A program made the translations under genes and the position numbers. Under the pieces are notes generated by a model, which worked only from the letters and a program-made list of their open reading frames with translations, ran no database searches and was not told the origin of the DNA. This document shows positions 2,554 to 42,147 of a stretch of DNA of 42,147 nt, one piece after another. Position 1 is the stretch's first letter, and every line of letters starts with the position of its first letter. Source of the stretch: Nitrospirae bacterium RBG_16_64_22 (lineage in GTDB: Bacteria; Nitrospirota; RBG-16-64-22); NCBI GenBank assembly GCA_001803795.1, contig MHEK01000059.1:1-42147 (forward strand), in the 5' to 3' direction.

Positions 2554-2595
2554 TTCCAAATTTCCAATTTCCAATTTCCAATTTCCAATCTACAA
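2554..2595. repeat. heptad tandem array (TTTCCAA)n, 4 perfect + 2 degenerate units
   Basis: ttccaaa tttccaa tttccaa tttccaa tttccaa tctacaa, in the divergent galT / DUF4124 promoter region. Confidence 0.9.
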
Positions 2596-2629
2596 TACAT
2601 CTGCACTCTGGCGGACAGGGAGGGAAGCC

Positions 2630-3727
2630 GTGATCGATCCATTCTCTTCGAGTTGGGGTCGGCGCTCCAAGCCGGCCATCATTCTAGCCTTTTCCCTTCT
2701 CTTTGTCGCCCTCCACCTCTTCCCCGCGTCCTCCCCCGCCGCCGAAGGCCCCGTCTACCAGTACCACGACGACGAGGGGAACGTCCACTTCACCGACGAC
2801 CCGACGAAGATCCCATTCCCGGAGAAAGCGCCCTCCGACGACAGCGACAGGGCGGACCGCAAGGCGTATCTCCGGTCCCTCCGCGCCTGGCTTCACAACA
2901 CGGGAGCGACGGGCGAAGACATCCTCCTCGTTCTCATCGGCGACCACGTCCTCGGGCAGATCCGGACGGACGAATCGGTCCCCGTGAAGACGGCCTTCCT
3001 CCAATCGATCGGATCGCTCCGAAACGACGTGAGAACGCATCTCGGCGTCCCCGGCGCCCTCGCCGAGCCGGGCCTCGACCAGTGGATCGACCGGGCCTCC
3101 CGGCCCGAGGGCCTCGACCCAGAAGAGGTCGATCTTCTCCGGTCCGTGCCGACGGCCAGAATCGCCCGGTCTTACGAAATTGCCCTCGCCTCTTGGACGC
3201 GCCGCGGACGCTTCGCGGAGGACTGGCGCCAATGGCGCGCGCGCCACTTCTCCTACGAGGCCGGTACGCCGACGGCCGGAGAAGACCCCAACACCATCCG
3301 GCTGGGCGTTCTGTCCAGGCTCCTTCAGGCACACGAAGCCGCGAGAGCCCTCTGGGGGCTTCGCGGCGGTTCCCGCGCCTCCGCGGTCAAGCCGCCGCGG
3401 ATACCGGCGGCTCAGGAAGCCCCCATCCTGGCCGAGGGCCGGGCGCTTCTCCGCGAGCTTGTCCGGCTCGCCGCGGAAGAAAAAGTCCCCGCGGCGGCGA
3501 ACGCGGCCCGGCACGCCTCCCTGGCGGGACCATCGCTTCAGATCGAACAGTTCTTCGGCGGCCGGGTCGTCGGTCCGACGGAATGGGCATCGAAACTTGC
3601 CTCCGCCCTCCGGGCGAACGACTACGGCCGGTTTGCGGCTCTCCTGAAGAGTCCGCCGCCCGTAAAGAACAAGCCTTCGGAAATACCCCAGGAGGAGCCC
3701 CCGAAGAGAAGGAAGAAGAAACCTTGA
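2630..3727 (+). CDS. DUF4124 domain-containing membrane-anchored protein
   Basis: GTG at 2630 is preceded by AGGGAGGGA. N-terminal hydrophobic segment AIILAFSLLFVALHLF, then VYQYHDDEGNVHFTDDP (DUF4124 signature), basic tail KRRKKKP. The first two thirds of the 808-aa track ORF is antisense to galT and is discarded. Confidence 0.65.
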   Translation: MIDPFSSSWGRRSKPAIILAFSLLFVALHLFPASSPAAEGPVYQYHDDEGNVHFTDDPTKIPFPEKAPSDDSDRADRKAYLRSLRAWLHNTGATGEDILLVLIGDHVLGQIRTDESVPVKTAFLQSIGSLRNDVRTHLGVPGALAEPGLDQWIDRASRPEGLDPEEVDLLRSVPTARIARSYEIALASWTRRGRFAEDWRQWRARHFSYEAGTPTAGEDPNTIRLGVLSRLLQAHEAARALWGLRGGSRASAVKPPRIPAAQEAPILAEGRALLRELVRLAAEEKVPAAANAARHASLAGPSLQIEQFFGGRVVGPTEWASKLASALRANDYGRFAALLKSPPPVKNKPSEIPQEEPPKRRKKKP

Positions 3728-3760
3728 AAATTGGAAATTGTAAATTGGAAATTGTAAAGC
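3726..3760. repeat. heptad tandem array (GRAAATT)n, complementary sense to the 2554 array
   Basis: gaaaatt ggaaatt gtaaatt ggaaatt gtaaagc. It starts inside the TGA of the DUF4124 gene. The 14-nt unit ggaaattgtaaatt occurs twice. Confidence 0.9.
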
Positions 3761-3811
3761 GAAAGAACAGAGAAGAAGTTCCCCGCTTTGCGATTTACGC
3801 TTTTTGGCCAT

Positions 3812-3848
3812 CCTTTCACTTTGACATTTTCCAATTTCCAATCGCTCT
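3812..3848. repeat. degenerate heptad array ending in TTTCCAA x2
   Basis: cctttca ctttgac at tttccaa tttccaa tcgctct. Its reverse complement attggaaattg matches 3730-3740, giving an ~11-nt inverted repeat. Confidence 0.75.
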
Positions 3849-3940
3849 TGTGACCTACGCCGACCTCTTTCCTTTCCTGATTCCGACGATCCGCGTATTC
3901 CGCAAACCTTGGGGAAAGATCCGAGACAACTCTCGCCCGG

Positions 3941-3982
3941 TTGACACGAAACGAGGAAGTGTATATTTTATAGTGTATATTT
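3941..3982 (+). promoter_or_regulatory. candidate sigma70 promoter plus direct-repeat operator of the phd/vapC operon
   Basis: TTGACA 3941-3946 and an A/T-rich -10 region (tatatttt, 3962-3969). The 11-nt direct repeat AGTGTATATTT sits at 3958-3968 and 3972-3982, 19 nt before the ATG. Confidence 0.45.
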
Positions 3983-4000
3983 AACTGGGGACATCGTCTG

Positions 4001-4237
4001 ATGAGAGCAACAGCCAAGGAACTTCGAACCAGGGGCAGACAACTGATCGACGCGGTGGGCCGCGGAGAGGAGATAACGATCACCCACCGTGGAAAACCGC
4101 GCGCCAAGCTCATCCCCTTGCCTCGACGCCAGCCTCGCCGTTTGGCCGAGAGCCCTGCCTTCGGCCTCTGGAAGGACCATCCAAACGTACGCGACGTGGG
4201 TGCCTTCGTTGACAGGCTTCGCAGGAGCCGCCATTGA
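4001..4237 (+). CDS. type II antitoxin, Phd/YefM family
   Basis: 78 aa, MRATAKELRTRGRQLIDAVGRGEEITITHRGKPRAKLIPL. The stop overlaps the toxin start (TTGA). Confidence 0.8.
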   Translation: MRATAKELRTRGRQLIDAVGRGEEITITHRGKPRAKLIPLPRRQPRRLAESPAFGLWKDHPNVRDVGAFVDRLRRSRH

Positions 4238-4617
4238 CCCTGGTGGACACAGACGTCCTTGTCTGGTTCCTTCGCGGGAACCGGAAGGCCGCGGACGCGC
4301 TTGAACGACTGGACGGCTTCGCGATTTCCGCCGTCACGTACATGGAACTGGTCCAGGGGATGCGAAACAAGGAAGAGCTTCGCATCCTGCGGACCGCGAC
4401 CCGGGAGTGGCAGACCGAGACCCTTCCCCTCAACGAAGCGATCTCGAACCGGGCAGTCTTCTACGTGGAACAGCACTTCCACGAAGCGAACCTTCGTCTT
4501 GCCGACGCACTCATCGCCGCCACCGCCGTCGTGAACGGGATGCCCCTGTTCACCGGGAACATCAAGCACTACAAAATGATTTCGGACCTGTCTCTGAAGG
4601 TGTTCCGCGCCGCATGA
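4234..4617 (+). CDS. vapC: type II toxin, PIN-domain ribonuclease VapC
   Basis: 127 aa, TTG start. PIN acidic residues are in LVDTDVLV, YMELV, ADALIAAT and FTGNIKHY. Confidence 0.8.
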   Translation: MTLVDTDVLVWFLRGNRKAADALERLDGFAISAVTYMELVQGMRNKEELRILRTATREWQTETLPLNEAISNRAVFYVEQHFHEANLRLADALIAATAVVNGMPLFTGNIKHYKMISDLSLKVFRAA

Positions 4618-5697: not shown

Positions 5698-8097
5698 ATG
5701 GAACGCTCGGACCCCCAATCGCTCGAGAAGAAAATCCGCCTGCTTGAAGGCCAGCTCAAGCGCCGCAAGAGCAAGATCGACTCTATTCAGGACGAGGTCG
5801 ACAACCTCCGGTCTGAGGTGGACCACCACAAGAAGAACCTCAAGCGGGCCACCCAGCAGATTTCCCTTTTCTCGCGCGTCGGGAGCGCGGCCGTCCGCGA
5901 CGACGCCGACGACGTCTTCCACCTCGTTCTATCACTCACCCTCTCCGTCCTTAAGGCCAAACAGGGATCGATCCTCCTGGTCGAGCGCGACAACGCCGAA
6001 CTCTTCATTAAGGAAGCCATCGGCCTCGACGAGGAGGTCGTCCGCACCTTTCGGACGAAACTCGGCCAGGGAATCTCCGGGTGGGTCGCCAAACAGCGCA
6101 CGCCCCTCCTGATCCCCGACATCGAGAAGGACCCGCGCTTCCGGAAGATTAGCGACCCCAAGTACGAGACCCGCTCCCTTCTGTGCGCCCCGCTGGTCAA
6201 GAAGAACCGCGTCCTGGGCGTTATCAATATCAATAACAAGGTCGATGGATCGTCGTTCTCCCGCGAAGAACTGGCCCTTCTGACCGCCCTCGCCGACCAG
6301 ATGGCCATCCTCGTCGAGAACGCCCTCCTCCTGCGGGAGTCGGCCGAAAAGACCGCCGAACTGCGGGATGCGAACGCGAAGCTCACCCAGGCCAACCGCG
6401 AGAAAAAGGAGTTCCTCGCCCGCGTCTCCCACGAGCTGAGGACTCCCCTGAACGCGATCAAGGGAGCCGTCCACTACCTCACGAACGCCTCCGAGAGCGT
6501 CCCGCCCGACCGGCTCCAGGAGTTCCTGGGGATCATCGATCTTGACAGCGGCCGCCTGAGCCAGATGATCTCCGACCTCCTGGACTACGCCCGCCTGGAA
6601 GACGAGGAGATCGTTCTCAGCAAGACGCCCCTTCTCCTGGGCAAGATCGTCGAGGAGGCCCTGCTCGACGTCCGCGGTCAGGCCCACGCGAAGGAGATAC
6701 AGCTCAAAACGCGGATCCCGTCCCGCGCGGGAAAGGTCCCGGCGGATCACGACCGCATCCTGCGCCTCCTCGCGGACCTTCTGTCGAACCTGATCCACTA
6801 TGCAAGGCCGCGATCGACCATCCACGCATCCCTGATGGAGAACAGGCCGACCCAGGTTATCCAGATCGCATGCGACGGATGCGAAATCCCCGAGGATGAC
6901 ATCGGACACATCTTCGACCCGCCGGGGCGGGAGGCGGATTCCCGGGCCGGCGCGACGCTCCGAACGGGTCTCGGACTGTACATCTCCCGCCGCATCCTCG
7001 AACTCCACGGGGGGCGGCTCGAGCTGGACATGAAGCCGGGAGGGGACGTTCGCTTCCTCCTCACGTTCGACATGACTGCGGACCGGGTCGTGACTCGCCT
7101 CTCCACCAAAGCCTTCGACCTCCTCAACGACCTCATCAGCGAGATCATGGACGTGCGCATCTCTTCCATCATGATGATCGATGAGGCCAGCGCCGAGTTG
7201 TCCATCCGCACGGCCCGAGGCCTCGACGACGAAACGATCCGCCGAACGCGTCTCCGGCTCGGCGACAATATCGCCGGATGGGTTGCGCTGGAAGGCCGTC
7301 CCCTCCTCATCGAGGACATCGAGAAGGACCTCGTCCTCAAGCGGACGAGCATCGCCCAGTACGAGACGCGGTCCCTCCTGTCCGTTCCCATCCGGGCCGG
7401 TGACCGGGTGCTCGGCGTCCTCAACGTCAACAACAAGGAGGACGGATCGGTTTTCAACAGGGTCGACCTGGAACGGGCCAGCGTCCTGGCCGAACGGGTC
7501 GCCCGCCTCGCTGAGACCCTCTCCGGCGATCCGGACCCGGAGTACGTCTCGGCCGCGGCGGAGGGACTCACCCAGATCCTGGACGCCTACCGCCGGTACA
7601 AGACCGGACACCGCCGGGACATGCTCCCGCACCTTCTACCCCTTCTTGACACGCTCGACCTCGCGGAAGACCTCCGGCGCGAGATCGTCTTCGCCTCCCT
7701 GTTCCACGACATGGGCCTGGTCAAGTTCCCCCAGCAGGTCCTGACGAAACCGGGGGCGTTCACGGCCTCCGAGTGGGAAATGATGCAGACCCACCCCGAC
7801 ACGACATCCAACATCCTGGGATCCCTTCTTGCGACCGAGACGGGCCGGGCGATCATCCGGCATCACCACGAATCGTTCGATGGGACCGGTTATCCGGACA
7901 GCCTCCGCGGAGAACAAATCCCGATCGGCGCCCGGATCCTCTCCATCGTCGACGCCTACGCCGCGATGCTGACGTCCCGTCCCTACGCTCCGCTCCGATC
8001 TTCCGACGAAGCCCAAGCCGAGCTCAGGCGGCTGGCCGGAAGCCGCTTCGATCCCCTGCTCGTCGAGCAATTCATCGTCTCCCTCCAGGCCCGTTGA
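5698..8097 (+). CDS. multidomain sensor: coiled coil - GAF - histidine kinase (HisKA + HATPase_c) - GAF - HD-GYP phosphodiesterase domain
   Basis: 799 aa. H-box ARVSHELRTPLNAIKG and G2 box GLGLYISRRILELHGG. Two paralogous GAF modules (GWVAKQRTPLLIPDIEKD...YETRSLLCAPL and GWVALEGRPLLIEDIEKD...YETRSLLSVPI). C-terminal LFHDMG ... HHHESFDGTGYPD (HD-GYP signature). Confidence 0.85.
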   Translation: MERSDPQSLEKKIRLLEGQLKRRKSKIDSIQDEVDNLRSEVDHHKKNLKRATQQISLFSRVGSAAVRDDADDVFHLVLSLTLSVLKAKQGSILLVERDNAELFIKEAIGLDEEVVRTFRTKLGQGISGWVAKQRTPLLIPDIEKDPRFRKISDPKYETRSLLCAPLVKKNRVLGVININNKVDGSSFSREELALLTALADQMAILVENALLLRESAEKTAELRDANAKLTQANREKKEFLARVSHELRTPLNAIKGAVHYLTNASESVPPDRLQEFLGIIDLDSGRLSQMISDLLDYARLEDEEIVLSKTPLLLGKIVEEALLDVRGQAHAKEIQLKTRIPSRAGKVPADHDRILRLLADLLSNLIHYARPRSTIHASLMENRPTQVIQIACDGCEIPEDDIGHIFDPPGREADSRAGATLRTGLGLYISRRILELHGGRLELDMKPGGDVRFLLTFDMTADRVVTRLSTKAFDLLNDLISEIMDVRISSIMMIDEASAELSIRTARGLDDETIRRTRLRLGDNIAGWVALEGRPLLIEDIEKDLVLKRTSIAQYETRSLLSVPIRAGDRVLGVLNVNNKEDGSVFNRVDLERASVLAERVARLAETLSGDPDPEYVSAAAEGLTQILDAYRRYKTGHRRDMLPHLLPLLDTLDLAEDLRREIVFASLFHDMGLVKFPQQVLTKPGAFTASEWEMMQTHPDTTSNILGSLLATETGRAIIRHHHESFDGTGYPDSLRGEQIPIGARILSIVDAYAAMLTSRPYAPLRSSDEAQAELRRLAGSRFDPLLVEQFIVSLQAR

Positions 8098-8212
8098 TGG
8101 GCGGATCATCATTCGCAGGACCGGAAAGTGATTGCCTCGGGGCGCGAAAACCGAATATCATCCCCGGCGAGTTTCGGCCGAGCACCGTGGCGCGCGATTG
8201 TCGGAGGATCAG

Positions 8213-9795: not shown

Positions 9796-11511
9796 ATGGC
9801 TCCGTCCGCCACAGACAGGACCCCGGCCGGTCCATTGAAACCGCTGACGTGGCGGCGCGCGCCGATCGCCTTCCTGCTCGCCCTGACAGCTTTTCTCCTG
9901 ATCTTTCGCCTCGGCACGCCCGGCCTCACGGATCGGGACGAAGCCTCGTTCTCCGAGGCGGTCCGGGAGATGATCGAAGGCGGCGACTGGCTCACGCCCC
10001 ACTTCAACGGCGCGACGCGCTTCGACAAGCCGCCTCTCATCTACTACGTGATGGCCGTTCCCGTGACTGTCTTCGGTCTGTCGGAGTTCTCGCTCCGCTT
10101 CCACAGCGCAACGGCCGGCGTAGGGCTCGTCCTGCTCGTCTTCCTGTTCGCCCGCCGCCACGTCGGCCAGCGCGCCGCGATCTACTCAGCCGGGTGCCTC
10201 GCGGCGTCCCTGGGATTCCTCGTCCTGGGCCGGGCCGCCATCACCGATATGACGCTCCTGCTCCTCACGACGGGGGCTCTCTTTTCCTTCTTTCGGGCCT
10301 ACTGGTCCCCCGCGCCCAGCGGTCGTCCCTGGTACCGGCTCGCCGACGTCCTTCTGGCCCTCGCGTTTCTCGTCAAAGGACCGGTCGGCCCAATCGTCGT
10401 CTCCCTCGCGGCCACTGGCTTCCTTTTCGCCGCCGGAGGATTCAGGCGGTACGCGCGGGAAGCCCGCCCCTGGCTCTCGATCCTGATCGTCCTCGGCCTC
10501 TCCCTGCCATGGTTCGCCCTGATGCTCGCCATACACGGCCAGGCCTACGTCGACGCGGCCATGTACCACACGGTCACGAGGTACACGTCGACTCTCGGAG
10601 GGCACGGGGGAACGGTCATCTACTACTTCCCCGTCGTCCTTCTCCTCCTGTTTCCCTGGAGCATCTTCCTTCCCGGGACACTCATCGAGTCACTCAAAGG
10701 ATTCCGCGACAAGGCCCGCCGCGACGCGGTTTCTTCCTTCCCCGTATTCCTCTCGATCTGGACCGTCCTGGTCTTCGTCTTCTTCTCCCTTTCATCGACC
10801 CGGCTCCCCCACTACATTCTCCCCCTCTTTCCGGCGGCGGCGATTCTCGTGGGAACGCGCATCGCCCGCTGGGCCGAAGACCCGCCTGCGAGGCGCATAC
10901 TGCCGAGCCTCGTCGTGGCGGGCCTGGTCGGCGCCCTGCTCGCCGCCGGGGTCGCCGGCCTCGATCTCGTGTACGGGCGATACGGAGGCCTCGTCATGCG
11001 CGAGGTCCCATCCGCCCAGGCTGTCGACCTTGGCCCCTGGGGGCTGACCCTCGCCGCGATTCTCTTCGCCGGCTCGGCCGCACTCGCGTGGGCCGGTTCG
11101 CGGAGGAGATGGAACGCCGCCTGGCTCTCCGGCGTGACGGCGCTCTCCCTGGCGTTCATCACCATCGTCACGGCGATCCTCCCGGCAATAGACGCGAAGT
11201 TCCTGGCTCCAGGGAGAAACCTGGCGCGAAAAGCGGGGACGCTCGTGCCGCCGGGAGGCGCATGGGCGATCTACGAGGTCTACCGTCCGTCGTTCGTTTT
11301 CTATTCCGAGAGGCGGGTTGTCCAGATCCGGGAGGGCGAGGAGACGCGCCTTGCCGCCCGCATCTTGTCGGGGGAGGTGTCCGCCGTCCTCGCCCGGGAA
11401 TCGCGCGTCCAACGCATCAGAGAGATCGATCCGTCGTTGTCCGTCCAGGACGCTCAAGGAGGTCTCGCGCTGATGGTTAGCGCGGTTCGCGGGGAGGCAG
11501 AACCGCGATGA
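9796..11511 (+). CDS. ArnT/PMT-like polyprenyl-phosphate-sugar dependent glycosyltransferase (GT39/GT83 type)
   Basis: 571 aa, polytopic. N-terminal GLTDRDEASFSEAVREMIEGGDWLTPHFNGATRFDKPPLIYY is the family signature loop. Confidence 0.8.
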   Translation: MAPSATDRTPAGPLKPLTWRRAPIAFLLALTAFLLIFRLGTPGLTDRDEASFSEAVREMIEGGDWLTPHFNGATRFDKPPLIYYVMAVPVTVFGLSEFSLRFHSATAGVGLVLLVFLFARRHVGQRAAIYSAGCLAASLGFLVLGRAAITDMTLLLLTTGALFSFFRAYWSPAPSGRPWYRLADVLLALAFLVKGPVGPIVVSLAATGFLFAAGGFRRYAREARPWLSILIVLGLSLPWFALMLAIHGQAYVDAAMYHTVTRYTSTLGGHGGTVIYYFPVVLLLLFPWSIFLPGTLIESLKGFRDKARRDAVSSFPVFLSIWTVLVFVFFSLSSTRLPHYILPLFPAAAILVGTRIARWAEDPPARRILPSLVVAGLVGALLAAGVAGLDLVYGRYGGLVMREVPSAQAVDLGPWGLTLAAILFAGSAALAWAGSRRRWNAAWLSGVTALSLAFITIVTAILPAIDAKFLAPGRNLARKAGTLVPPGGAWAIYEVYRPSFVFYSERRVVQIREGEETRLAARILSGEVSAVLARESRVQRIREIDPSLSVQDAQGGLALMVSAVRGEAEPR

Positions 11512-12218
11512 GCATCCGTATCAGCGTCGTCATCCCGGCGCACAACGAGGGCAAAAACCTCCCCCCGCTGGCCGAGCAGACCGCCGCCGTCCTCATGGAG
11601 ATGGGCACGGAGTTCGAGATCCTTGTCGTCAACGACGGGAGCACGGACGACACCTCCGAGAGAATCAGGGAAACCGGGAGTCTGGTGCCCGAACTCCGCG
11701 AAATCCGGCTCAGGAAGAAATCGGGCCAGACGGCCGCGATCCTCGCCGGCTTTTCGCAAGCCCGCGGAGAGATCGTCATCACGATGGACGGCGACCAGCA
11801 GAACGACCCGGCCGACATCCCGAAGTTATTGGAGGCCCTCAAAGGTGCCGATGCCGCCGCCGGCTGGCGCGTTTCCCGGAAAGATCCATGGCTCACGGTT
11901 GCCGCTTCGAGGATAGCCAACGCCGTCCGCAACCGGCTGAGCGACGACTCGATCCGCGACACCGGGTGCGGCCTCAAGGCGTTTCGGCGCGAGACCCTCT
12001 CGTCCATCCCCGCCTTCAACGGAATGCACCGCTTCTTCCCGACCCTGATCCGACAGGCGGGATACAAAGTGGTCGAGGTCCCCGTCTCGCACCGTCCCCG
12101 CGCCCACGGCCAGACCCACTACTCGATCCGAAGCCGGGCGATCCGGGCCTTCGTGGACTTATTGGCCGTAAGGTGGATGAAGTCGCGGAGAATCCGCTAC
12201 GAAATTGAAGAGAAGTGA
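11508..12218 (+). CDS. family 2 glycosyltransferase, ArnC/DPM1-like polyprenyl-phosphate sugar synthase
   Basis: ATGA overlap with the ArnT-like gene. ISVVIPAHNEG, VVNDGSTD, TMDGDQQNDP (DxD) and a C-terminal membrane-associating helix. Confidence 0.8.
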   Translation: MSIRISVVIPAHNEGKNLPPLAEQTAAVLMEMGTEFEILVVNDGSTDDTSERIRETGSLVPELREIRLRKKSGQTAAILAGFSQARGEIVITMDGDQQNDPADIPKLLEALKGADAAAGWRVSRKDPWLTVAASRIANAVRNRLSDDSIRDTGCGLKAFRRETLSSIPAFNGMHRFFPTLIRQAGYKVVEVPVSHRPRAHGQTHYSIRSRAIRAFVDLLAVRWMKSRRIRYEIEEK

Positions 12219-12223
12219 GACAC

Positions 12224-12360
12224 CGTTATTGGTTATTGGTCAATCGTTATTGGTCAATCGTCATTCGCCAACCATTGACCATTGACTATTAACCATTAAC
12301 AGCTCTTGTCATTGACCATTGACCGCTCTTGCCATTGACCATTGACGATTGACTATTGAC
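12224..12360. repeat. heptad tandem array, ~19 units (CGTTATT/GGTCAAT then CATTGAC type)
   Basis: cgttatt ggttatt ggtcaat cgttatt ggtcaat cgtcatt cgccaac cattgac cattgac tattaac cattaac agctctt gt cattgac cattgac cgctctt gc cattgac cattgac gattgac tattgac. It contains a 23-nt higher-order repeat (12301-12323 / 12324-12346). Confidence 0.95.
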
Positions 12361-13645: not shown

Positions 13646-13668
13646 GCAAACTCCGTCACTGGCAAGAA

Positions 13669-28235: not shown

Positions 28236-28245
28236 GCTCCGCGCG

Positions 28246-30672: not shown

Positions 30673-30676
30673 GAGC

Positions 30677-30716: not shown

Positions 30717-30764
30717 TCCAGCCCCCCAACCACCCGGCCGCCCGGTTCTTCGATCGGAGCGTGA

Positions 30765-33281: not shown

Positions 33282-33315
33282 GAGGCGCGGCTTCGACGCG
33301 CTTGGAGACCCGTTC

Positions 33316-33777
33316 ATGCCCGAGACATCCTCATCCGGCCCCGGACGCCTTGTCCTCTTCAATCTCGACGCCCAGCATTTCGGCTTCCGGATCGACAACC
33401 TGATCGAGATCGGGACCGTGGGGGCCGTTCGCCCCGCGTCCGATCTTCCCGGCTACGTTTCCGGAATCACGCTGTCGCGAGGGCGCGAAGTGGCGATTCT
33501 CGACCTCCGCTCCATCCTCGGCCTGCCGGCGCGCCGCCTTTCCCCATCCACGCCTCTCATCGTCATGCGCATCGGTGCCCAAGCCCTCGGGATCGCCGTG
33601 GACGCCGTTTCCAATATCCACACCGCTCCCGGAACGTGGCACCCGTTCCCAGCGGGCGCCGTGCCCGAAGACCGCAACCCGTATACGGCCGTCACGCGAA
33701 TCGACGACGACCTCCTTTTGATCCTGGATGAGCAGATGCTCCTGCCCATCGCCCGCGCCGTCAAAAAAGCCGCATGA
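33316..33777 (+). CDS. cheW: CheW-like coupling protein
   Basis: 153 aa. LVLFNLDAQHFGFRIDNLIEI...VSGITLSRGREVAILDL. Confidence 0.8.
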   Translation: MPETSSSGPGRLVLFNLDAQHFGFRIDNLIEIGTVGAVRPASDLPGYVSGITLSRGREVAILDLRSILGLPARRLSPSTPLIVMRIGAQALGIAVDAVSNIHTAPGTWHPFPAGAVPEDRNPYTAVTRIDDDLLLILDEQMLLPIARAVKKAA

Positions 33778-34235
33778 AAACTCAAACCTTCCCGGGCATC
33801 GAACCCGTACTCACGTTCAGGGTCGGCCCCCGCTTTCTCGGAATCCCGATCTCCAAGATCCTCGAAATCCTTCCGACTCCCATGCCGACACCCGTCCCGC
33901 TCGCCTTCGCCCATGTCGAGGGAATCGTGGAATACCGGAAGGCCCTCATCCCCGTCTATAACCTGTGCCGCCGCCTCTCCGTGCCATCCGACCCGTCGAT
34001 TTCGCCACACCTGATCGTGATCCGGGACGGAGACGCCTTGTTTGGCGTGACGGTGGACGAAATCGGAAAAATCATCTCGCAGCCCGCGCCCGCGGATCTG
34101 CCCGCGGACCGGTCGGTCCACGGACTGCCGCCCGGGCTCCTCCAGTTCGCCGCGGACGACAGCGGAAGCGTTGTCCCCGTTATCCTGCCGCAGGCATTGC
34201 TTGCGGCCCGGAACACCATTCGAATGGAAGCCTAA
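33774..34235 (+). CDS. cheW: CheW-like coupling protein (divergent)
   Basis: 153 aa. ATGA overlap with the preceding cheW. LTFRVGPRFLGIPISKILEI...VEGIVEYRKALIPVYNL. Confidence 0.75.
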   Translation: MKTQTFPGIEPVLTFRVGPRFLGIPISKILEILPTPMPTPVPLAFAHVEGIVEYRKALIPVYNLCRRLSVPSDPSISPHLIVIRDGDALFGVTVDEIGKIISQPAPADLPADRSVHGLPPGLLQFAADDSGSVVPVILPQALLAARNTIRMEA

Positions 34236-34259
34236 CCCGTCCGCATTCGGCGGAAAGGA

Positions 34260-35636
34260 ATGGGAGGGATCATGAAACCGAAACTCCTCTTGGCGGATGA
34301 CAGCATCACCATCCAGAAAGTGGTGGAACTGATATTCTCGAACGAAAACTTCGAGATCATCACCGTCAACAATGGGGCCGACGCCCTCGCGAAAGCGAAG
34401 GCCGAGCGCCCCGATATCGTCCTGGCCGACATCTACATGCCAAAGCTGGATGGATACGAACTTTGCCAGGAGATGAAGAAGGATCCCGATGTCGCCGGCA
34501 CTCCCGTCATTCTTCTCGTCGGGGCGTTCGAGAGCTTTGACGAAAGCCGCAGCGCCGCCGTCGGGGCGACCGGACACATCACAAAGCCGTTCGAATCGCA
34601 GGAGCTCGTCGGGAAGGTGCGCGAGACGATCGAAGCCGCGGCGGCGGCCCGATCCGCCAAGGAGGCTCCCCGCCCTTCCGAACCCGCGGCCGCCGAGGAC
34701 CAGTGGACCGTGATCGACATCACATCGGGGGCCCGTCCGCTTCCGGCACCCCAAGCCCCCGAGGAGGAGGCCGACCTATGGAAGGACGTCTCGCTCATCG
34801 GAGAAACCCCCGCGGCTGAATTCTACCCGGAGGAAAAGGCCGCCCCCCGCCCGCCGGCCTCCGAACCTCAAGGCGAGGTATTCGAGATCTCCGTCGAGGA
34901 AAAAGCCGCCCCGGCCGTCGAGGCGCCGCCCCAGGCGCAGCCGGCCGCCCACACGACCCTTCACGGAACGCCCGTCACGGTCTATGAAGACGCCCGCGAA
35001 GAAAAAGCCGAGACCCCCGAGGTCCGCCCCCCGATCGAGCTTTCCGCCTCGGAACAGCCCTTCGAGCTCCAGTCGTTCGAGAGTCTCGACGAGGCCCATC
35101 TCCTCGGCGCCGAATTCGGCGTTCCGCCCCGGATCGAGCCCGCGGCCGTCCCCCCGCCCAAGGCCGGCGAAGAGAAGATCGAGAAGCTGCAGACAGCCGA
35201 GATGTACGAGTTCCTCGCCCCGGAGGAAATTCTCACCGAAGAGTCGATCGAGATGGTTCCGTCCGCCGTCGAAGAACCTTCTCTCCCAGAGAAACCCCCG
35301 ATCGCGGCGCCTTCCGCGGCCGCGCCGATGGTCGATCTGGATGTCACCCTCGAAGCGATTCCCGTCCCTCCGCCTCCCGCGGAAGAAGAGTTCGCGGAGG
35401 TTGTCATTCCAGAGGAACTCCCTCCACCGCCCCAGGCCCAGGCGGCCGCCGTCCCGTCGGGGGAGGAACTCGCGGCTCTGATCGAGCCGATGCTTCGCCG
35501 GATCGTGGAGGAACTCCTGCCGAACATCTCTCGGGAGACCCTGGACCGTGTCGCGTGGGAAGTGGTCCCAGACCTCGCCGAGGTCCTCATTTCGAAGGAG
35601 ATTCAGAACCTCAAGCAGGGAATGTCGAACAACTAG
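34260..35636 (+). CDS. response regulator: receiver + long acidic Pro/Ala/Glu-rich region + short conserved C-terminal helical module
   Basis: 458 aa. REC motifs LLADDS...LADIYMP...LVGAF...TKPF. The tail ends LRRIVEELLPNISRETLDRVAWEVVPDLAEVLISKEIQNLK. The start may be ATG 34272 (MKPKLL...). Confidence 0.75.
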   Translation: MGGIMKPKLLLADDSITIQKVVELIFSNENFEIITVNNGADALAKAKAERPDIVLADIYMPKLDGYELCQEMKKDPDVAGTPVILLVGAFESFDESRSAAVGATGHITKPFESQELVGKVRETIEAAAAARSAKEAPRPSEPAAAEDQWTVIDITSGARPLPAPQAPEEEADLWKDVSLIGETPAAEFYPEEKAAPRPPASEPQGEVFEISVEEKAAPAVEAPPQAQPAAHTTLHGTPVTVYEDAREEKAETPEVRPPIELSASEQPFELQSFESLDEAHLLGAEFGVPPRIEPAAVPPPKAGEEKIEKLQTAEMYEFLAPEEILTEESIEMVPSAVEEPSLPEKPPIAAPSAAAPMVDLDVTLEAIPVPPPPAEEEFAEVVIPEELPPPPQAQAAAVPSGEELAALIEPMLRRIVEELLPNISRETLDRVAWEVVPDLAEVLISKEIQNLKQGMSNN

Positions 35637-36462: not shown

Positions 36463-36684
36463 CTACCACTTGTGCCCGCCGCAAGGACAGTCCAGGTACG
36501 CCTCGGACGCCCGTCCCTGAAGGACTTCATTCATCATCCTCTCCCACAGCATAACGTACTCGTCTTCGCTCAACCGATACCCGAACGCCCGCAGAGCCCC
36601 CTCGGTATCGGCCGCAAGTCTCGTCCGGAACGAAGCATCGACGGCCAGCCGATTCACGACCTCACGATAGGCGCTTGTGATCAT
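36463..36684 (-). CDS. small NHLP/Nif11-leader-like protein (possible RiPP precursor or Os1348-like NHLP-clan protein)
   Basis: 73 aa from ATG 36684, with AAGGAGG 6 nt upstream. VVNRLAVDASFRTRLAADTEGALRAFGYRLSEDE resembles NHLP-type leader helices. The C-terminus is ...EAYLDCPCGGHKW. Confidence 0.55.
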   Translation of the reverse strand: MITSAYREVVNRLAVDASFRTRLAADTEGALRAFGYRLSEDEYVMLWERMMNEVLQGRASEAYLDCPCGGHKW

Positions 36685-37100
36685 CTCCAACCTCCTTTTG
36701 TATGGGTCTTCAGCCTCCTTACTGGGCGGACACCATAGCACGAAACGAAAGTCCCGCCCGTGACCCCAATCACGCCTGGCGATATCACGCCACGGAAAGA
36801 AACAAGTAGGGTGCCAACGACACAGGAAAAAGGCAACATGTTGATATCACAGTGGTTTCTTCCATCACCGAAGAACGCCGTTGAGCAACCCTGTCTACGA
36901 TCGTGTATGGGGTGTATGGAACCGTCAACAGGCGTCCATCACCGACCATGGGATGAACATGCGCCGCGTATTTGGTTCGACATTGCATACCCGGATCGTC
37001 TCGCCCGGGCGAGGATCGCCGTCAGTGGGTTCATCCGTCCGAAGAATCTCGTCCCAATATCTCGAACCAGCCAGCCCGCGTGATCTGATATCATGAAAAA

Positions 37101-38162
37101 ATGAGCGCGCGAGGATCCTCTCCACACCTTCCCGACGTCGCGGCGATTTCCTTCCCGGCGCTTGCGGCGGCGGTTGAAGAACTCGGCCTGCCCCTCTACC
37201 GGGCCCGCCAGATCCGCCGGTGGATCGACGCGCGCGGCGCGACGAGCTTCGCCGAGATGACGGACCTCCCAAAGGCCCTCCGCGAACAGCTCCAGACGCG
37301 GGTGCGGCTCTTCACGCCGGATATCATTCGGGAGAATACGGCCCCGGATGGGACCCGCAAGTTCCTCCTCGAGCTCGAAGACGGCCTGACGGTCGAATGC
37401 GTTCTCATTCCGGACAAAGACCGGTTGACCCTCTGCCTCTCCACGCAGGTCGGTTGTCCCGTCAATTGTTCCTTCTGTCTGACCGGACGGATGGGTCTCG
37501 TGCGGAACCTTGCGACCGCGGAGATCGTGGGACAGGTCCGGTCCGTGCGGGCGCGAACGCCGCGACGGATCTCGAACATCGTCCTGATGGGAATGGGCGA
37601 GCCGCTTCTAAACTTCGAGAACACGGCCGACGCGCTTCGCCGCCTGACGGACCCGATGGGATTCGGATTCTCGTCGCGCCGGATCACGCTCTCCACCGCC
37701 GGAATCATTCCGGGCATAGAGCGCCTCGGCCGCGAAGGCCCTCACGTCAATCTCGCCGTCTCGCTCAATGCAACGACGGACGAACTCCGGACACGTCTGA
37801 TTCCCATCAACCGGAAATGGCCGATCGGCCGGCTTCTCGCGGCGCTCCGCGCCTACCCCCTCCCGCCCCGGAGGCGGATCACGATCGAGTACGTTCTTCT
37901 CGGCGGGGAGAATGACACGGACGAGGACGCCCGCCGGCTCGCGGCTCTTCTCAAGGGCCTGCGGTGCAAGGTCAACCTGATCCCCTTCAACCCCTTCCCG
38001 GAATCGTCCCACCGGACCCCCGACCGGAGAAGGGTCGAATGCTTTCAGCGAATCCTGACCGAGAAACGGTATTCGGCATTCATCCGGGAGAGCCGCGGGA
38101 AGGAAATCCGTGCCGCCTGCGGCCAGCTCTGGGCGGAGGAGAAAAAGTCCGGGGCAAGTTGA
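37101..38162 (+). CDS. rlmN: 23S rRNA (adenine2503-C2)/tRNA methyltransferase RlmN (radical SAM)
   Basis: 353 aa. YRARQIRRWI, CLSTQVGCPVNCSFCLTG (CxxxCxxC), MGMGEPLLN and the C-terminal AACGQL. Confidence 0.9.
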   Translation: MSARGSSPHLPDVAAISFPALAAAVEELGLPLYRARQIRRWIDARGATSFAEMTDLPKALREQLQTRVRLFTPDIIRENTAPDGTRKFLLELEDGLTVECVLIPDKDRLTLCLSTQVGCPVNCSFCLTGRMGLVRNLATAEIVGQVRSVRARTPRRISNIVLMGMGEPLLNFENTADALRRLTDPMGFGFSSRRITLSTAGIIPGIERLGREGPHVNLAVSLNATTDELRTRLIPINRKWPIGRLLAALRAYPLPPRRRITIEYVLLGGENDTDEDARRLAALLKGLRCKVNLIPFNPFPESSHRTPDRRRVECFQRILTEKRYSAFIRESRGKEIRAACGQLWAEEKKSGAS

Positions 38163-38184
38163 GAGTTGAAAGTTGAAGGGTGAA
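38157..38184. repeat. heptad tandem array (AGTTGAA)n, 4 units
   Basis: agttgag agttgaa agttgaa gggtgaa. It includes the rlmN stop codon. Confidence 0.85.
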
Positions 38185-39259: not shown

Positions 39260-39899
39260 CTGGATCGCCGCTGTCGCTCGGGGCAGGCGCGCTTCGCTCC
39301 TCGGCTGGCGGAGCCGCTTCGCCTCCTTCCTTCCCTTCCGCCTCACCGAACGGAAGCTCCAGGGGAAGCTCGGCGTCCGCCATGTCCTGGAACTCCTTGA
39401 GACTCGGAAGCTGGCTCAGGTCCTTGAGGCCGAAGTACTGGAGGAACTCCTGCGTCGTCCCGTACATGATCGGCCGTCCCGCCACGTCCATGCGGCCCAG
39501 CATCCGCACGAGCCGCCGCTCCAAGAGCGTCTTGAGCGCCCCGCCGCAGTCGACGCCCCGGACTTGCTCCACCTCTGCCCGGGTGACCGGCTGGCGATAC
39601 GCGACGATCGCCAGCGTCTCGAGTCCCGCCCGCGAGAGCCGGGCGGGCGTCTTGGACAGGAGACGGCGGACCCAGGGAGCGTACTGCGGGCGCGTGACCA
39701 TCTGCCAGCCTCCCGCAACCTCCACGACGTGAAGGCCGCTGTCGCGCACCTCCAGTTCGTCGCGCACCTCCGTCAGCGCCTCGCGGACCTCTTCCCGGTC
39801 CACGCCGTCGAAGAGATCGGCCATTCGATCGACCGAAAGAGGTTCAGGCGCCACAAAGAGGAACGCCTCCAGGACGGCCCGGATCTCGCTTCGCGTCAC
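39234..39899 (-). CDS. scpB: segregation and condensation protein B
   Basis: 221 aa. GTG start overlapping the scpA stop (GTGA). LEAFLFVAPEPLSV...LSRAGLETLAIVAYRQPVTRAEVEQVRGV. Confidence 0.9.
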   Translation of the reverse strand: MTRSEIRAVLEAFLFVAPEPLSVDRMADLFDGVDREEVREALTEVRDELEVRDSGLHVVEVAGGWQMVTRPQYAPWVRRLLSKTPARLSRAGLETLAIVAYRQPVTRAEVEQVRGVDCGGALKTLLERRLVRMLGRMDVAGRPIMYGTTQEFLQYFGLKDLSQLPSLKEFQDMADAELPLELPFGEAEGKEGGEAAPPAEERSAPAPSDSGDPGEKCAGEA

Positions 39900-40666
39900 G
39901 CCGCGGCCTCGCTCGCCGGCAGGGTCTCTGGGGGATCGTCCGGCACCGCGCGCGTGATGTGGATTGGCCCGAAGAGGGCCACCTGAACAACCCGGACCGC
40001 GCGGATGCGAACCAGCTCCAGCAAGGCCAGGAACGTGACGATCACGCCCAGCCGCGTCCTCTCCTTGTCAAAGAGGTCCTCGAACGCCAGGGAATCAGCC
40101 TCCTTAAGGCGGCTGAGAATGTGCGTGATCTTCTCGCTCACGGTGATCCTTTCAAGCGTAATCTCGCGCACCCCCTGATCGGGGACCCGATCGAGCACTT
40201 TCCGCAACGAATCCAGAAGATCGAAGAGCGTAACGCTTCCGGGCGGGAGATCGGCCTCGTGAGCCGGCGGAAGAGGAGGAGCCTCCGCCCGCCGCGGGAA
40301 GATATTGCGCCAGACGTCCTGCCGTTCTTCGAGGACCTCAGCCGCGTCCTTGTACCGCTGGTACTCCAGCAGGCGCTGGACCAGTTCGGCCCGCGGATCC
40401 TGACCCGACTCGTCCTCTCCCCCGCCCGCCGTTTCGTCGGGTGGAAGGAGCATCTGCGACTTCACCTTCGTCAGCGTTGCAGCCATCACCAGGAACTCCC
40501 CCGCGAGATCCAGGTTCAGCGTCTTCATCAGATCGACGTACTCGAGATACTGCTGGGTGATGAACGCGATTGGGATGTCGAAGATGTCGATCTCGTGTTT
40601 CTTGATGAGATGAAGAAGGAGGTCCAGCGGACCCTCGAAAACCTCCAGCTTGACTTCGTACCCCAT
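39896..40666 (-). CDS. scpA: segregation and condensation protein A
   Basis: 256 aa. YEVKLEVFEGPLDLLLHLIKKHEIDIFDIPIAFITQQYLEY. Confidence 0.9.
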   Translation of the reverse strand: MGYEVKLEVFEGPLDLLLHLIKKHEIDIFDIPIAFITQQYLEYVDLMKTLNLDLAGEFLVMAATLTKVKSQMLLPPDETAGGGEDESGQDPRAELVQRLLEYQRYKDAAEVLEERQDVWRNIFPRRAEAPPLPPAHEADLPPGSVTLFDLLDSLRKVLDRVPDQGVREITLERITVSEKITHILSRLKEADSLAFEDLFDKERTRLGVIVTFLALLELVRIRAVRVVQVALFGPIHITRAVPDDPPETLPASEAAA

Positions 40667-40757
40667 CTCTCCCCCCCCAAAAAACGCGGCTATCCTACCG
40701 GAATCGGCCCTTCATGGCAACAGGACGCGGGGAATGCAGGACACTCGAAGGAAGAGG

Positions 40758-42056
40758 CTACAATCGGTCCCGGATCGAAACGTAATCGCGTCGGCGGGGA
40801 CCCACATAGAGCTGGCGCGGACGGCCGATCCGACGGTCTGGCTCGCCCATCATTTCGGTCCACTGGGCAACCCACCCCACCGTCCGCGCCATCGCGAAGA
40901 TGACGGTGAACATGTTGAGCGGAATGCCGATCGACTTGAGAATGATCCCCGAATAGAAGTCGACGTTCGGATAAAGTTTCCTCTCGACAAAGTACGGATC
41001 GTTAAGCGCCACCCGCTCAAGTTCGAGGGCCGTCTCGAACAGGGGAACGTTCTCCGCCCCAATCTCCTTGAGGACCTGGTGGCACATGTCGCGGAGAATT
41101 TGCGCCCGGGGATCGAAGTTCTTGTAGATGCGGTGGCCGAACCCCATGAGCCGGAACGTGTCGTTCTTGTCCTTAGCCCTCCCGATCACCGACGGAATAT
41201 GCTTGGGATCGCCGATCTGGTCGAGCATCCGGATGACCTCTTCGTTCGCCCCGCCATGCGCCGGTCCCCAGAGGGCGCCGATCCCCGCCGAGACGGCCGC
41301 GAACGGGTTCGCCAGCGAGGAGCCCGCCAGGCGGACCGTGGATGTAGAGGCGTTCTGCTCGTGATCGGCGTGGAGAATGAAGATGATGTCCATCGCCCGC
41401 GTCACCGTCGGGCTGATCTCGTACGTCTCGCACGGCGTCGCGAACATCATCCGCAGGAAATTCTCCGTAAGACCGAGCGAGTTGTCCGGATAGATGAAGG
41501 GCTGGCCCATCGAGTACTTGTACGAATCGGCCGCGATCGTCGGCATCTTGGCGATCAGCCGGTGGGCCGAGATCTCCCGGTGGCGGGGGTTATGGATGTC
41601 GAGCGAATCGTGGTAGAAGGAAGATAACGCCCCGACGACACCGACCATGATCGCCATCGGATGCGCGTCGCGCCGGAACCCCTGGTAGAAATCGCGAAGT
41701 CCCTCGTGGACCATCGTGTGATGGAGGATGTTCTTCTTGAACTCCTCCATCCGGGCGGCCGTCGGAAGGTCTCCGTACAGGAGCAGATAACACGTTTCCA
41801 GGTACGAACTCTTCTCCGCGAGCTGTTCGATCGGATAGCCGCGGTAGAGGAGGACCCCCTCGTCCCCGTCGATGAAGGTGATCCGGCTCTCGCACGACGC
41901 CGTCGATTGGAAGCCGGAATCATATGTCAGATATCCCAGGGCGGGATAGAGCTTTCGAATATCGATGACGGACGGGCCGATCGACCCGTCGAGAACGGGG
42001 AGCTCGACCGATTTTCCCGTTGCGTTGTCGGTGATCGTGACGGTCTTGTTCGCCAT
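40758..42056 (-). CDS. gltA: citrate synthase (type II, GltA)
   Basis: 432 aa. [30 protein letters not shown] and [14 protein letters not shown] motifs. Confidence 0.95.
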
Positions 42057-42126
42057 CGCATCGAATCCTGTTCTGCGGGAGTTTTTCGCATCCGAAACGG
42101 AACCGGCTTGGACTGGGATCAGTCTA

Positions 42127-42147
42127 AGCGTTCAGCGTTCAGCGTTC
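42127..42147. repeat. heptad tandem array (AGCGTTC) x3, truncated by the window edge
   Basis: agcgttc agcgttc agcgttc, upstream of gltA. Confidence 0.8.

Follow-up and report, generated by a model that had tools for sequence, protein, structure and literature searches.

Genes and repeat arrays of the window

The window analysed here is the whole 42,147-nt stretch of contig MHEK01000059.1 (assembly GCA_001803795.1, positions 1 to 42,147) from Nitrospirae bacterium RBG_16_64_22, with a G+C content of 64%. Its intergenic spacers carry tandem arrays of 7-nt units (heptads) and 8-nt units (octads), many of which begin at the stop codon of the preceding gene. These arrays had been singled out in an earlier reading of the letters alone (the sequence-only reading), and their extent, placement, turnover, predicted RNA structure and relation to described repeats are reported below. 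The genes and open reading frames (ORFs) around them are arranged as follows.

1508-2512, minus strand: galT-like gene
2630-3727, plus strand: DUF4124 gene (Pfam DUF4124 match), TGA stop at 3725-3727
14611-15486, minus strand: SNase-LTD ORF (secreted-nuclease-like), downstream of pheT
15503-17929, minus strand: pheT, TGA stop at 15503-15505
18038-18828, minus strand: nucleotidyltransferase and HEPN-type substrate-binding pair, toxin-antitoxin-like, between pheS and pheT
18877-19905, minus strand: pheS, ATG at 19905
20032-20388, minus strand: rplT
20489-20689, minus strand: rpmI, stop at 20489-20491
20775-21284, minus strand: infC, stop at 20775-20777
21380-23317, minus strand: thrS
25422-35636, plus strand: chemotaxis cluster

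The arrays are listed next with the strand on which they are read and the support from Tandem Repeats Finder (TRF), pattern matching or folding; z values compare the predicted fold with shuffled sequences.

2554-2595, minus strand: TTGGAAA heptads (minus-strand reading), about 5-6 copies; TRF 5.0 copies, 96% match
3724-3758, plus strand: TTGGAAA/TTGTAAA heptads, 5 copies; TRF period 7 and 14
3812-3848, plus strand: TTTCCAA heptads, 2-3 copies; TRF 3828-3842, inverted repeats I1-I5
12224-12265, plus strand: GTTATTG/GTCAATC heptads, about 6 copies; TRF period 7, 14 and 21
12271-12362, minus strand: GGTCAAT heptads in the sense of the CCG/Fer4 gene, about 13 units; TRF period 7 (12.6 copies) and period 23
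13654-13779, no single strand: inverted heptad-array pair GTCAATN / CGATTGAC / CCAATAA; TRF, 14-nt perfect inverted pair
15469-15524, minus strand: GGTGAAT[CG] octads, about 7 copies; TRF 6.8 copies, pattern matches
19906-19947, minus strand: octads C-rich on the sense strand, AAACCACC TAACTACC GAACCACC TAGCCACC CCGCCACC; TRF 19906-19942, 42-nt inverted repeat
19953-20002, minus strand: G-rich GGGTTGAT-type octads, about 6 copies; TRF, 5' arm of the hairpin with 19906-19947, z -3.13
20004-20040, minus strand: hairpin across the rplT stop, GGCCGCCUGA ... UCAGGCGGCC, with TCGACGGN twice as the loop; TRF 20017-20033, fold
20442-20488, minus strand: GGTGAAT[CG] octads, 5-6 copies; TRF 5.4 copies, fold z -3.86
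20742-20774, minus strand: GGGTTGAT twice plus 2 degenerate octads; TRF 20742-20757, z -0.30
21321-21348, minus strand: weak GCAATCC-like heptads in the thrS-infC spacer, about 3 copies; below the TRF threshold in the window
30677-30716, plus strand: degenerate G-rich octads GGGGAATC GGTGCGTC GGTGAATG GGTTGATG GGGAGAAT; 3-mismatch match at 30678-30700
38156-38184, plus strand: AAGTTGA heptads, 4 copies; TRF 3.1 copies, rlmN TGA stop (38160-38162) inside the first unit
42127-42147, strand unassigned: AGCGTTC, 3 perfect copies; TRF 100% match, ends at the window edge

The list contains six or more units of unrelated sequence, with two different periods, within 42 kb. Every intercistronic gap of the essential infC-rpmI-rplT-pheST operon carries an array. 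The heptads at 2554-2595 lie in the divergent spacer between the galT-like and DUF4124 genes, and a 37-nt stretch of them is identical to an array in metagenome locus L091. The inverted pair at 13654-13779 belongs to the same heptad family as the array at 12271-12362 and fills the divergent spacer between the CCG/Fer4 gene and a cNMP-binding gene; the 23-nt higher-order unit of 12271-12362 is present, by inspection, on both flanks of the CCG gene. As the sequence-only reading had pointed out, 15493-15512 and 20442-20461, two loci 5 kb apart, share the same 20-nt block. The AGCGTTC array lies 71 nt upstream of the start of citrate synthase (42056, minus strand). Written as RNA, units read GGUGAAUS (octad) and GGGUUGAU.

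Extent and statistical support

Arrays were detected by TRF and by autocorrelation, and arrays of at least three copies entered the statistical count. TRF reported period-7 or period-8 runs at nearly all of the positions given in the sequence-only reading (2554-2589, 3724-3758, 3828-3842, 12225-12254, 12271-12362, 13729-13778, 15471-15524, 19906-19942, 19953-20002, 20017-20033, 20442-20484, 20742-20757, 38156-38177 and 42127-42147). The weaker arrays held up in part: 20742-20773 contains two perfect units, while its other two are degenerate; 21321-21348 shows only about three loose heptads, although its orthologue in a sister genome (L001 8917-8940) is a TRF period-7 array of 3.4 copies; and 30677-30716 is a degenerate five-unit octad run, visible in the sequence and as the 3-mismatch match.

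The autocorrelation of the spacers reached 0.299, 0.298 and 0.285 at lags 7, 14 and 21 against a background of about 0.262, with lesser peaks at 8, 16 and 24, while the coding sequence gave a period-3 signal only. Of arrays with at least three copies, the 5112 nt of spacer contained ten (402 nt) and the 37143 nt of coding sequence contained none; 100 dinucleotide-preserving shuffles of the spacers yielded a mean of 0.01 arrays. These are head-to-tail runs of 3-13 copies by TRF, longer than expected by chance from composition, with units whose length is not a multiple of three and which keep out of the coding sequence. The sequence-only reading placed arrays in most spacers, which overstates their spread; they are present in about 12 of the 30 spacers of at least 20 nt and 11 of the 24 of at least 80 nt.

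Could the arrays be assembly artefacts? Short-read assemblers do mishandle tandem repeats, and several contigs break inside arrays (the short-read contigs L084, L085, L216 and L217 end there). However, L083, which was assembled independently, aligns gap-free with the window over 4069 nt at 99.85% identity, the arrays being part of the alignment, and relatives among NCBI metagenome-assembled genomes (MAGs) and Logan contigs carry arrays at the same sites. The probability of an artefact is practically nil. The existence of the arrays is firm, while exact copy numbers of long arrays, such as the 20 in L081, are provisional.

Placement after stop codons and the strand rule

The sequence-only reading held that the arrays begin at stop codons and that the G-rich strand is the sense strand of the gene upstream. 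Both statements stood up. Nine arrays are stop-adjacent, following the DUF4124 gene, the GT2 gene, the CCG/Fer4 gene, pheT, rplT, rpmI, infC, mcp and rlmN, and in all nine the sense strand holds more G than C (0-13 C vs 7-38 G). At four of the nine the stop codon lies inside the first array units: the DUF4124 TGA at the start of 3724-3758, the CCG/Fer4 TAG (12353-12355), the pheT TGA and the rlmN TGA. Elsewhere the array begins 6 nt past the GT2 stop (12216-12218), directly behind the rpmI stop, 1 nt past the infC stop and 4 nt past the mcp stop (30670-30672). Confined to spacers and clustered at stop codons, the arrays are not evenly scattered random microsatellites. Array locations further include two divergent (promoter) spacers and one start codon, that of pheS, which the C-rich array adjoins.

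For an independent test of the strand rule, metagenome contigs were scanned for three GGTGAAT[CG] units, and 80 loci from more than 120 matching contigs were listed; genes were called crudely, as longest ORFs with a GC3 filter. Among these 80 loci, the gene ahead of the array has the G-rich strand as its sense strand in 35 cases, and 27 of these arrays lie within 30 nt of the stop, 13 of them overlapping the end of the ORF. In 29 other cases the gene ahead is read from the C-rich strand, and here only 4 arrays lie within 30 nt. The rule thus recurs outside the window (27 vs 4). Between co-directional genes the split was 17 G-rich-sense to 9 C-rich-sense, which is only suggestive as a sign of Rho avoidance. 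In GGTGAAT, GGTTGAT and AGTTGAA alike, three units of the G-rich strand contain TGA in all three frames.

The array at 15469-15524 also includes the first ATG of the SNase-LTD ORF (15486), 17 nt past the pheT stop. Its unit GGUGAAUG holds a GGUGA resembling a Shine-Dalgarno (SD) sequence, a UGA and an AUG, so arrays of this kind can fake stops and starts and mislead annotation.

Turnover between related genomes

A scan with the L20 protein found the sister genome L001, identical to L081 (JACPZO010000028.1, "Nitrospirae bacterium NC_groundwater_891..."), whose DNA is about 91% identical to the window over 18877-30293. Exact-protein look-up added four contigs, namely L082 (another sister-clade MAG), L083 (an ENA assembly) and the Logan contigs L084 and L085, and orthologues of the CCG/Fer4 protein supplied three more loci, L215 (84% protein identity), L216 (82%) and L217 (86%). 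In a wider set of 81 rplT neighbourhoods from other genomes, 67 had no array, and the window, the sister and one Chthonomonadaceae MAG (L074) stood out with 12-15 array bases per kb.

Comparison of orthologous spacers, which the sequence-only reading had recommended, revealed copy-number variation between conserved flanks. The rpmI-rplT octad array counts 5 copies in the window as in L083, against 12 in L082 and 20 in L081, between flanks that are 100% identical. At infC-rpmI the window has 2 units and the sister 3, and the array 3' of the CCG gene has 3 units in L217, of the same heptads as the window, against about 13 in the window. In L215 the spacer upstream of the CCG/Fer4 gene is 66 nt long and array-free, and the downstream gene overlaps it with no array. 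In L216 the upstream spacer spans 209 nt and contains longer arrays of the window's heptad family; after the CCG stop it has TTGGAAA/TTGTAAA units where the window has GGTCAAT, the TTGGAAA/TTGTAAA units following the DUF4124 gene in the window.

Units were also exchanged in the rplT-pheS spacer, where the window has GGGTTGAT/AACCACC and the sister clade CACAGAGG/CCTCTGTG. The sister spacer consists of CACAGAGG three times plus its complement, then CAGCNACC three times at the pheS ATG, and the inverted array pair is kept in both clades despite the different units. The hairpin across the rplT stop (20004-20040) is conserved in the alignment with the sister clade. Arrays are thus gained, lost, resized and replaced among close relatives, and unit families move between sites; the arrays are hypervariable, dispensable and replaceable.

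These observations bear on the proposal, made in the sequence-only reading, that the arrays are periodic binding platforms for a ring- or filament-forming nucleic-acid-binding protein, on the principle of TRAP or CsrA sponges; HutP and ribosome stand-by sites may be added to these models. Such a platform would be served by the strand rule, which puts the G-rich strand in the mRNA, and by the exact periodicity without indels. The octad offers SD-like GGUGA, UGA and, in its G variant, AUG; each GGUGA is complementary to UCACC of the 16S 3' end. The TTGGAAA units hold the CsrA core GGA, and binding of S1, Csp or CsrA was proposed for TAACTGA repeats (MacGregor 2015, PMC4679880). But a TRAP- or CsrA-like array would be expected to keep one conserved motif, such as GAG/UAG triplets at 2-3-nt spacing or GGA in loops, in a copy number matched to the oligomer, and the idea fits poorly because the units differ, one site has 5, 12 or 20 copies, the site in a close relative (L215) is empty and that in L216 holds a different family. 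Moreover, the window contains the unrelated units and two periods described above, the same units occur in divergent promoter spacers and, elsewhere, inside coding sequence on the opposite strand, and no candidate binding protein is encoded nearby. Binding itself would be a prediction from the motifs, and we consider a tuned platform very improbable. Phasing of DNA curvature, also raised in the sequence-only reading, is unlikely; 7- and 8-bp periods are out of phase with the 10.5-bp helical repeat.

Predicted RNA structure

Twelve spacer strands were folded and compared with shuffles, and 5 of them were significant with an array as hairpin arm (four spacers plus rpmI-rplT). The strongest was 12216-12362 (plus strand, z -6.37), in which 12224-12265 forms an arm, followed by 13646-13788 (plus strand, -4.05), rpmI-rplT 20389-20488 (-3.86), 3722-3850 (-3.17) and rplT-pheS 19906-20040 (-3.13). 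The minus strands of 12216-12362 and 13646-13788 gave -3.7 and -2.52. In the 3722-3850 fold the array 3724-3758 is the 5' arm and pairs with 3814-3842, within its inverted partner 3812-3848 (3' arm). In the rpmI-rplT spacer the last units of 20442-20488 pair with conserved sequence upstream of the rplT ribosome-binding site.

The remaining 5 of the 12 strands had no significant fold: 2513-2629 on both strands (z -0.4 and -0.3), the pheT array (+0.22, no RNA structure), the infC-rpmI spacer and the mcp-cheA spacer, where 30677-30716 pairs with downstream C-rich sequence at shuffle level (-0.11).

The pheS start deserves separate description. In both clades the C-rich array, as the 3' arm of its hairpin, reaches the ATG, and no SD sequence is visible there. 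As these octads are predicted to pair with the G-rich array upstream, the pheS start region would lie inside a long stem.

A comparable layout was found in the same operon of the unrelated Chthonomonadaceae MAG L074 (Armatimonadota), namely stop, (unit)n, loop, (complement)n, SD and start. Its heptad-armed hairpins (8025-8172, 9865-10001, 10349-10495 and 11632-11780) have z values of -4.3 to -9.8 and sit in the spacers around rplT and pheS, with one more in a spacer lying some 2 kb upstream; the one between pheS and pheT has a perfect (AGAAAAC)n/(GUUUUCU)n stem of 33 bp.

It is possible, although unlikely, that the hairpin is the functional unit, that is, that stem-loops with array arms are selected as RNase III sites, 3'-end protectors or devices for coupling or uncoupling cistrons, the repeat arms making the stem tolerant of register shifts. 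The significant folds, the inverted rplT-pheS pair maintained through a change of units, the L074 layout with its perfect duplex and the 3' arm over the SD-less pheS start all agree with this, as does the placement of C-rich partners within 250 nt of the 87 octad arrays in the metagenome matches listed, 13 arrays having one downstream and 4 having one upstream. On the other hand, about 80% of the same 87 listed arrays have no partner of their family within 250 nt, the arrays at 2554-2595, 15469-15524 and 20742-20774 show no structure, and L215 lacks arrays and hairpins at the CCG gene. Growth from 5 to 20 units adds only a single-stranded tail, arrays never coincide with U-tract terminators in 12000-24000, and the inverted pairs themselves could be a by-product of fold-back template switching.

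A G-quadruplex (G4) role, as proposed for GGGNATC repeats of Xanthomonas and Nostoc, is extremely unlikely as the general explanation. Its attractions are the G-rich sense strand right after stops, as described in PMC4692102, a complete G3N5 x4 motif by regular expression at 19976-20002, and the modal octad copy number of 4 among the metagenome loci listed, a mode biased by the search pattern, which required at least three units. Nevertheless, G3N1-7 x4 was matched in the window at 19976-20002 only, plus 15506-15532 when flanking sequence was included, so 19953-20002 is the sole array with a full canonical motif. GGTGAAT[CG] alternates GGG with GG, and the heptads TTGGAAA, GGTCAAT and AAGTTGA have no G tracts.

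Other known RNA signals were searched for as well. The 10 terminator-like sites in 12000-24000 all fall outside the arrays, their count equals that of shuffles, and no array hairpin in that region is followed by a U-tract; intrinsic terminators were rejected accordingly. Among Rfam families, including the L20 leader and the T-box, only a tRNA passed the gathering threshold, and 19800-21500 gave only chance-level matches (E 0.3-0.5). The consensus RNA polymerase pause site (G-10 Y-1 G+1, which fits GGTGAATCGGTG), Chi- or KOPS-like oriented octamers, DnaA boxes and CRP/FNR half-sites were considered and set aside.

Octads outside the window

The metagenome contigs listed as carrying the octad range from 32 to 70% GC and hold several copies each, and at least some of them are Nitrospirota. 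No homology was found between their flanks and the window; the arrays alone match. In 17 listed cases the octad lies inside a long ORF, always with the stop-free C-rich strand as sense and with the frame kept. Such ORFs include the following.

L114 1183-3945, minus strand: ValS (valyl-tRNA synthetase) with an octad block
L142 2730-3803, plus strand: ferrochelatase with two octad inserts
L108 1708-2931, plus strand: octad-bearing ORF
L141 197-1336, minus strand: octad-bearing ORF
L136 10495-11766, minus strand: octad-bearing ORF

LpxK-like and MoeA-like genes and a membrane protein, named by eye from their translations, are among the hosts. The inserts read like SPIHRFTD and fall in gaps relative to solved homologues, in surface loops. 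The octad-bearing ValS belongs to Nitrospirota / Thermodesulfovibrionales, and among proteins 79-95% identical to one another its loop holds the SPIHRFTD insert, other repeat-like inserts or almost nothing. Because one-unit and two-unit intermediates would be frameshifts, in-frame octad blocks in an essential gene must have arrived whole.

Whole-block arrival raises the question of a dedicated, sequence-specific propagation system, of the MITE (miniature inverted-repeat transposable element)/REPIN or templated-insertion type, that would insert pre-formed blocks for slippage to resize afterwards. The frame-preserving blocks in ValS, ferrochelatase and the LpxK-like and MoeA-like genes suggest it, and so do the variable ValS loop, the presence of several unit families at several loci each, the replacement of one family by another at the same site in a relative, and the listed contigs of 32-70% GC with several octad copies each. 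Against it, no transposase, RAYT or reverse transcriptase was found among about 45 window ORFs scanned against Pfam, and no target-site duplications or conserved terminal sequences were identified. In viral contigs composition-matched scrambled octad arrays gave 3, 2 and 0 matches versus 4 for the real octad; as scrambled octads are about as frequent, we do not claim that the octad is unusually widespread. Ectopic gene conversion between arrays could give the same pattern without a dedicated enzyme, and we regard a dedicated system as quite improbable. A bolder version, in which GGTGAAT[CG] is actively propagated across Nitrospirota of varied GC, pre-formed blocks being copied in by a sequence-specific process, even in-frame into surface loops of essential proteins as SPIHRFTD-type peptides, and the hairpins between cistrons serving as operon punctuation, also seems rather unlikely. 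If it held, the arrays would be self-renewing operon punctuation, register-tolerant elements for RNA processing or stability found independently in at least two phyla.

Two further patterns were noted in these contigs. In those of 66-70% GC a run of short arrays, which follow one another in a conserved order over about 300 nt, forms a composite that has the octads at its outer end: TCGTAA-like, TCGAGGC (about 4.4 copies), CGGACAT, GGACCTG and then the octads (L093 3250-3520, L115 330-700, L119 12080-12400, L121 5850-6260 and L139 1-300). Either these are copies of a single orthologous spacer, or the composite is itself a dispersed element. The second is another polymorphic in-frame insert, PPSPPLVKGGVEGG, SPPLARGELKGG or PSPSRGEGKGGG, in the same Nitrospirota proteins (ValS alignment columns ~253-270; also L136 and L141), which may come from translation of another repeat element, perhaps one of a GC-rich hairpin type.

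Relation to described repeats

Cyanobacterial heptamers known as short tandemly repeated repetitive (STRR) sequences reportedly were described by Mazel et al. in 1990 as tandem, non-coding and of several families per genome. The STRR units of heterocystous cyanobacteria are CCCCAGT, TTGGTCA and CAACAGT. STRR2, which we take to be TTGGTCA, is nearly matched by the window's TTGGTTATTGGTCA, and tandems resembling TTGGTCA with 1-2 mismatches occur at 12229, 12250 and 13724. Unlike STRR hosts, the present host is labelled Nitrospirae, a different phylum, and octads are not part of STRR.

The sequence-only reading did not recognise the arrays as a described repeat family. As to kind this was mistaken, since long simple-sequence repeats with units of about 7 nt have been described (PMC4692102, PMC4679880). 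According to the summary in PMC4679880, Mrazek, Guo and Shah (2007) catalogued long simple-sequence repeats with 5-11-nt units, heptamers predominating, for which polymerase slippage was proposed as the origin and which exceed chance expectation, have a sporadic phylogeny and, where the unit is not a multiple of three, are kept out of genes. As far as that summary goes, the present lineage and unit seemingly were not covered by the survey.

A close parallel in layout is that of the Xanthomonas GGGAATC and Nostoc GGGGA(C/T)T arrays (Rehm et al. 2015, PLoS One, PMC4692102). These are dispersed arrays of 2-26 copies, about 90% intergenic, whose nearest ORF is on the 5' side, mostly less than 50 bp past its stop and on the coding strand, with some overlap. 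They form 70-75 convergent inverted pairs per genome, vary in length between related species, are transcribed and are not tied to surface or phase-variable genes, and their function was left unresolved; G4 formation was proposed for the GGGNATC repeats. The window shares with them dispersed short units not a multiple of three, a G-rich sense strand less than 50 bp past the stop, and convergent inverted pairs making stem-loops, here in four spacers; its octad GGTGAATC resembles GGGAATC. It differs in having 8-nt units (GGTGAAT[CG], GGGTTGAT) besides 7-nt ones, in packing several families into 42 kb, and in belonging to a Nitrospirota-labelled groundwater MAG. None of its unit types (GGTGAAT[CG], GGGTTGAT, GGTCAAT, TTGGAAA and AAGTTGA) conforms to GGGNATC or GGGGA(C/T)T, no tandem GGGAATC was found in the window even with 2 mismatches, and at least four G3 tracts are present in none of its arrays except 19976-20002 and, assisted by its flank, 15506-15532.

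TAACTGA direct repeats of marine Beggiatoaceae, some Cyanobacteria and Bacteroidetes occupy many intergenic sites, including ribosomal-protein operons and a place next to pheS, and their unit contains stop codons (MacGregor 2015, PMC4679880). The same paper mentions occasional in-ORF copies, and a unit shared by distant lineages with no known transfer mechanism. TAACTGA arrays mostly lie just upstream of starts, where they replace the ribosome-binding site, whereas the window arrays lie mainly right after stops; only 19906-19947 abuts a start codon, and no tandem TAACTGA was found in the window.

Elements of the repetitive extragenic palindromic (REP)/BIME/REPIN type are likewise short, follow stops, form mRNA hairpins as inverted pairs and vary between strains. 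They are, however, imperfect palindromes with a conserved core, mobilised by RAYT, whereas the window has tandem 7-8-nt units, and the arms of its inverted pairs after genes are tandem arrays and not REP-type palindromes. For literature on Nitrospirae or on octanucleotide arrays, nothing specific was found.

Taken together, the window arrays are long simple-sequence repeats of the heptamer class, with GGTGAAT[CG] as a new unit. What is new is the octad GGTGAAT[CG] and its in-frame copies in Nitrospirota housekeeping genes. The sequence-only reading was therefore partly right, in its strand and position rules, and partly wrong, in that the class is described and a tuned binding array is unlikely.

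A proposed selective filter on slippage-prone repeats

The reading that we favour, with moderate confidence, is that the arrays are dispersing repeats, prone to slippage and dispensable, on which selection acts as a filter. Their length would change through slippage during replication or through unequal recombination, blocks of a unit family would spread to further sites, with template switching or gene conversion among arrays as the probable route, and purifying selection would decide where arrays survive. As 7- and 8-nt units shift the reading frame, arrays would be excluded from coding sequence and tolerated in untranslated spacers. They would creep into last codons only in the orientation that gives a quick stop, which in the major units is that of the TGA-containing G-rich strand; this orientation would explain both why arrays begin at stops and why their sense strand is rich in G and poor in C. 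The C-rich strand, when untranslated, may in addition be disfavoured as a Rho loading site. Hairpins of inverted pairs may act secondarily like REP-type 3' stem-loops, protecting mRNA ends, guiding processing by RNase III or uncoupling adjacent cistrons, while copy number and unit sequence would not be tuned. The filter is supported by the stops inside arrays at pheT, rlmN, CCG and DUF4124, by the 13 of 27 stop-adjacent metagenome arrays, among the matches listed, that overlap the ORF end, and by the 17 listed arrays within ORFs, all of which are read from the stop-free C-rich strand and stay in frame.

Several observations sit less easily with such a filter. The strand rule is strong (9/9 in the window; 27 vs 4 outside), and the filter arguments explain only part of it: GGTCAAT and TTGGAAA lack a stop on the sense strand, the rpmI gene keeps its native stop intact with the array directly behind it, and the co-directional split is only 17 vs 9, avoidance of Rho being a tentative argument. 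Inverted pairing survives unit replacement between the window and the L001 clade, which looks like selection on structure, although it could equally come from a mechanism making both arms at once. Octads in contigs of 32-70% GC, among the matches listed, are not predicted by local slippage alone. The movement of blocks between loci would be deduced from patterns in the sequence, and the metagenome gene calls behind these counts are crude.

Arrays of the heptamer class have been known as STRR since 1990, were catalogued genome-wide in 2007 and were described in Xanthomonas, Nostoc and Beggiatoaceae in 2015, and their origin and function make them an old unsolved class of bacterial repeats. Here several families, octads among them, fill nearly half of the longer spacers in a lineage new to the class. 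Public assemblies provide a natural experiment, with the same sites carrying 0, 3, 5, 12, 13 or 20 units or another family, and the in-frame octad copies in housekeeping genes of low-GC Nitrospirota, which argue for insertion of whole blocks over growth by single units, offer a handle on the dispersal mechanism. Arrays also have practical consequences: they break short-read assemblies and can shift annotated stops and starts, as for the pheT stop, the SNase-LTD start and the SD-less pheS.

Further observations in the window

From the octad array to the start of rplT, 53 nt (20389-20441, minus strand) are 100% identical to the sister, the genomes being about 91% identical overall. This stretch, possibly an L20 autoregulatory structure, has a GGGGAAACCCC apex, pairs with the last array units and has no Rfam match. 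Behind pheS the sister clade has, in place of the window's nucleotidyltransferase and HEPN-type pair, a set of small unknown genes, DUF2283 genes and a TIR_2 gene, and pheT is absent from the next 4.5 kb (L081 11670-16157).

Upstream of thrS lies tRNA-Val(GAC) (23464-23538, minus strand). Its promoter, at 23602-23574, resembles the consensus (TTGACA, 17 nt, TAAGAT), and 23387-23369 forms a terminator-like hairpin. A small ORF at 36463-36741 (minus strand) gave a sub-threshold match to PF14407 (Frankia-type ribosomally synthesised peptide; 27.6 bits vs a cut-off of 48).

Finally, a direct repeat, AGTGTATATTT(TAT)AGTGTATATTT, lies at 3940-3990 (plus strand) just downstream of TTGACA and upstream of a PIN-domain (VapC-like) gene at 4234-4617. 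TRF reports it as "AGTGTAT x3", and it looks like an operator or promoter element rather than a member of the array families.

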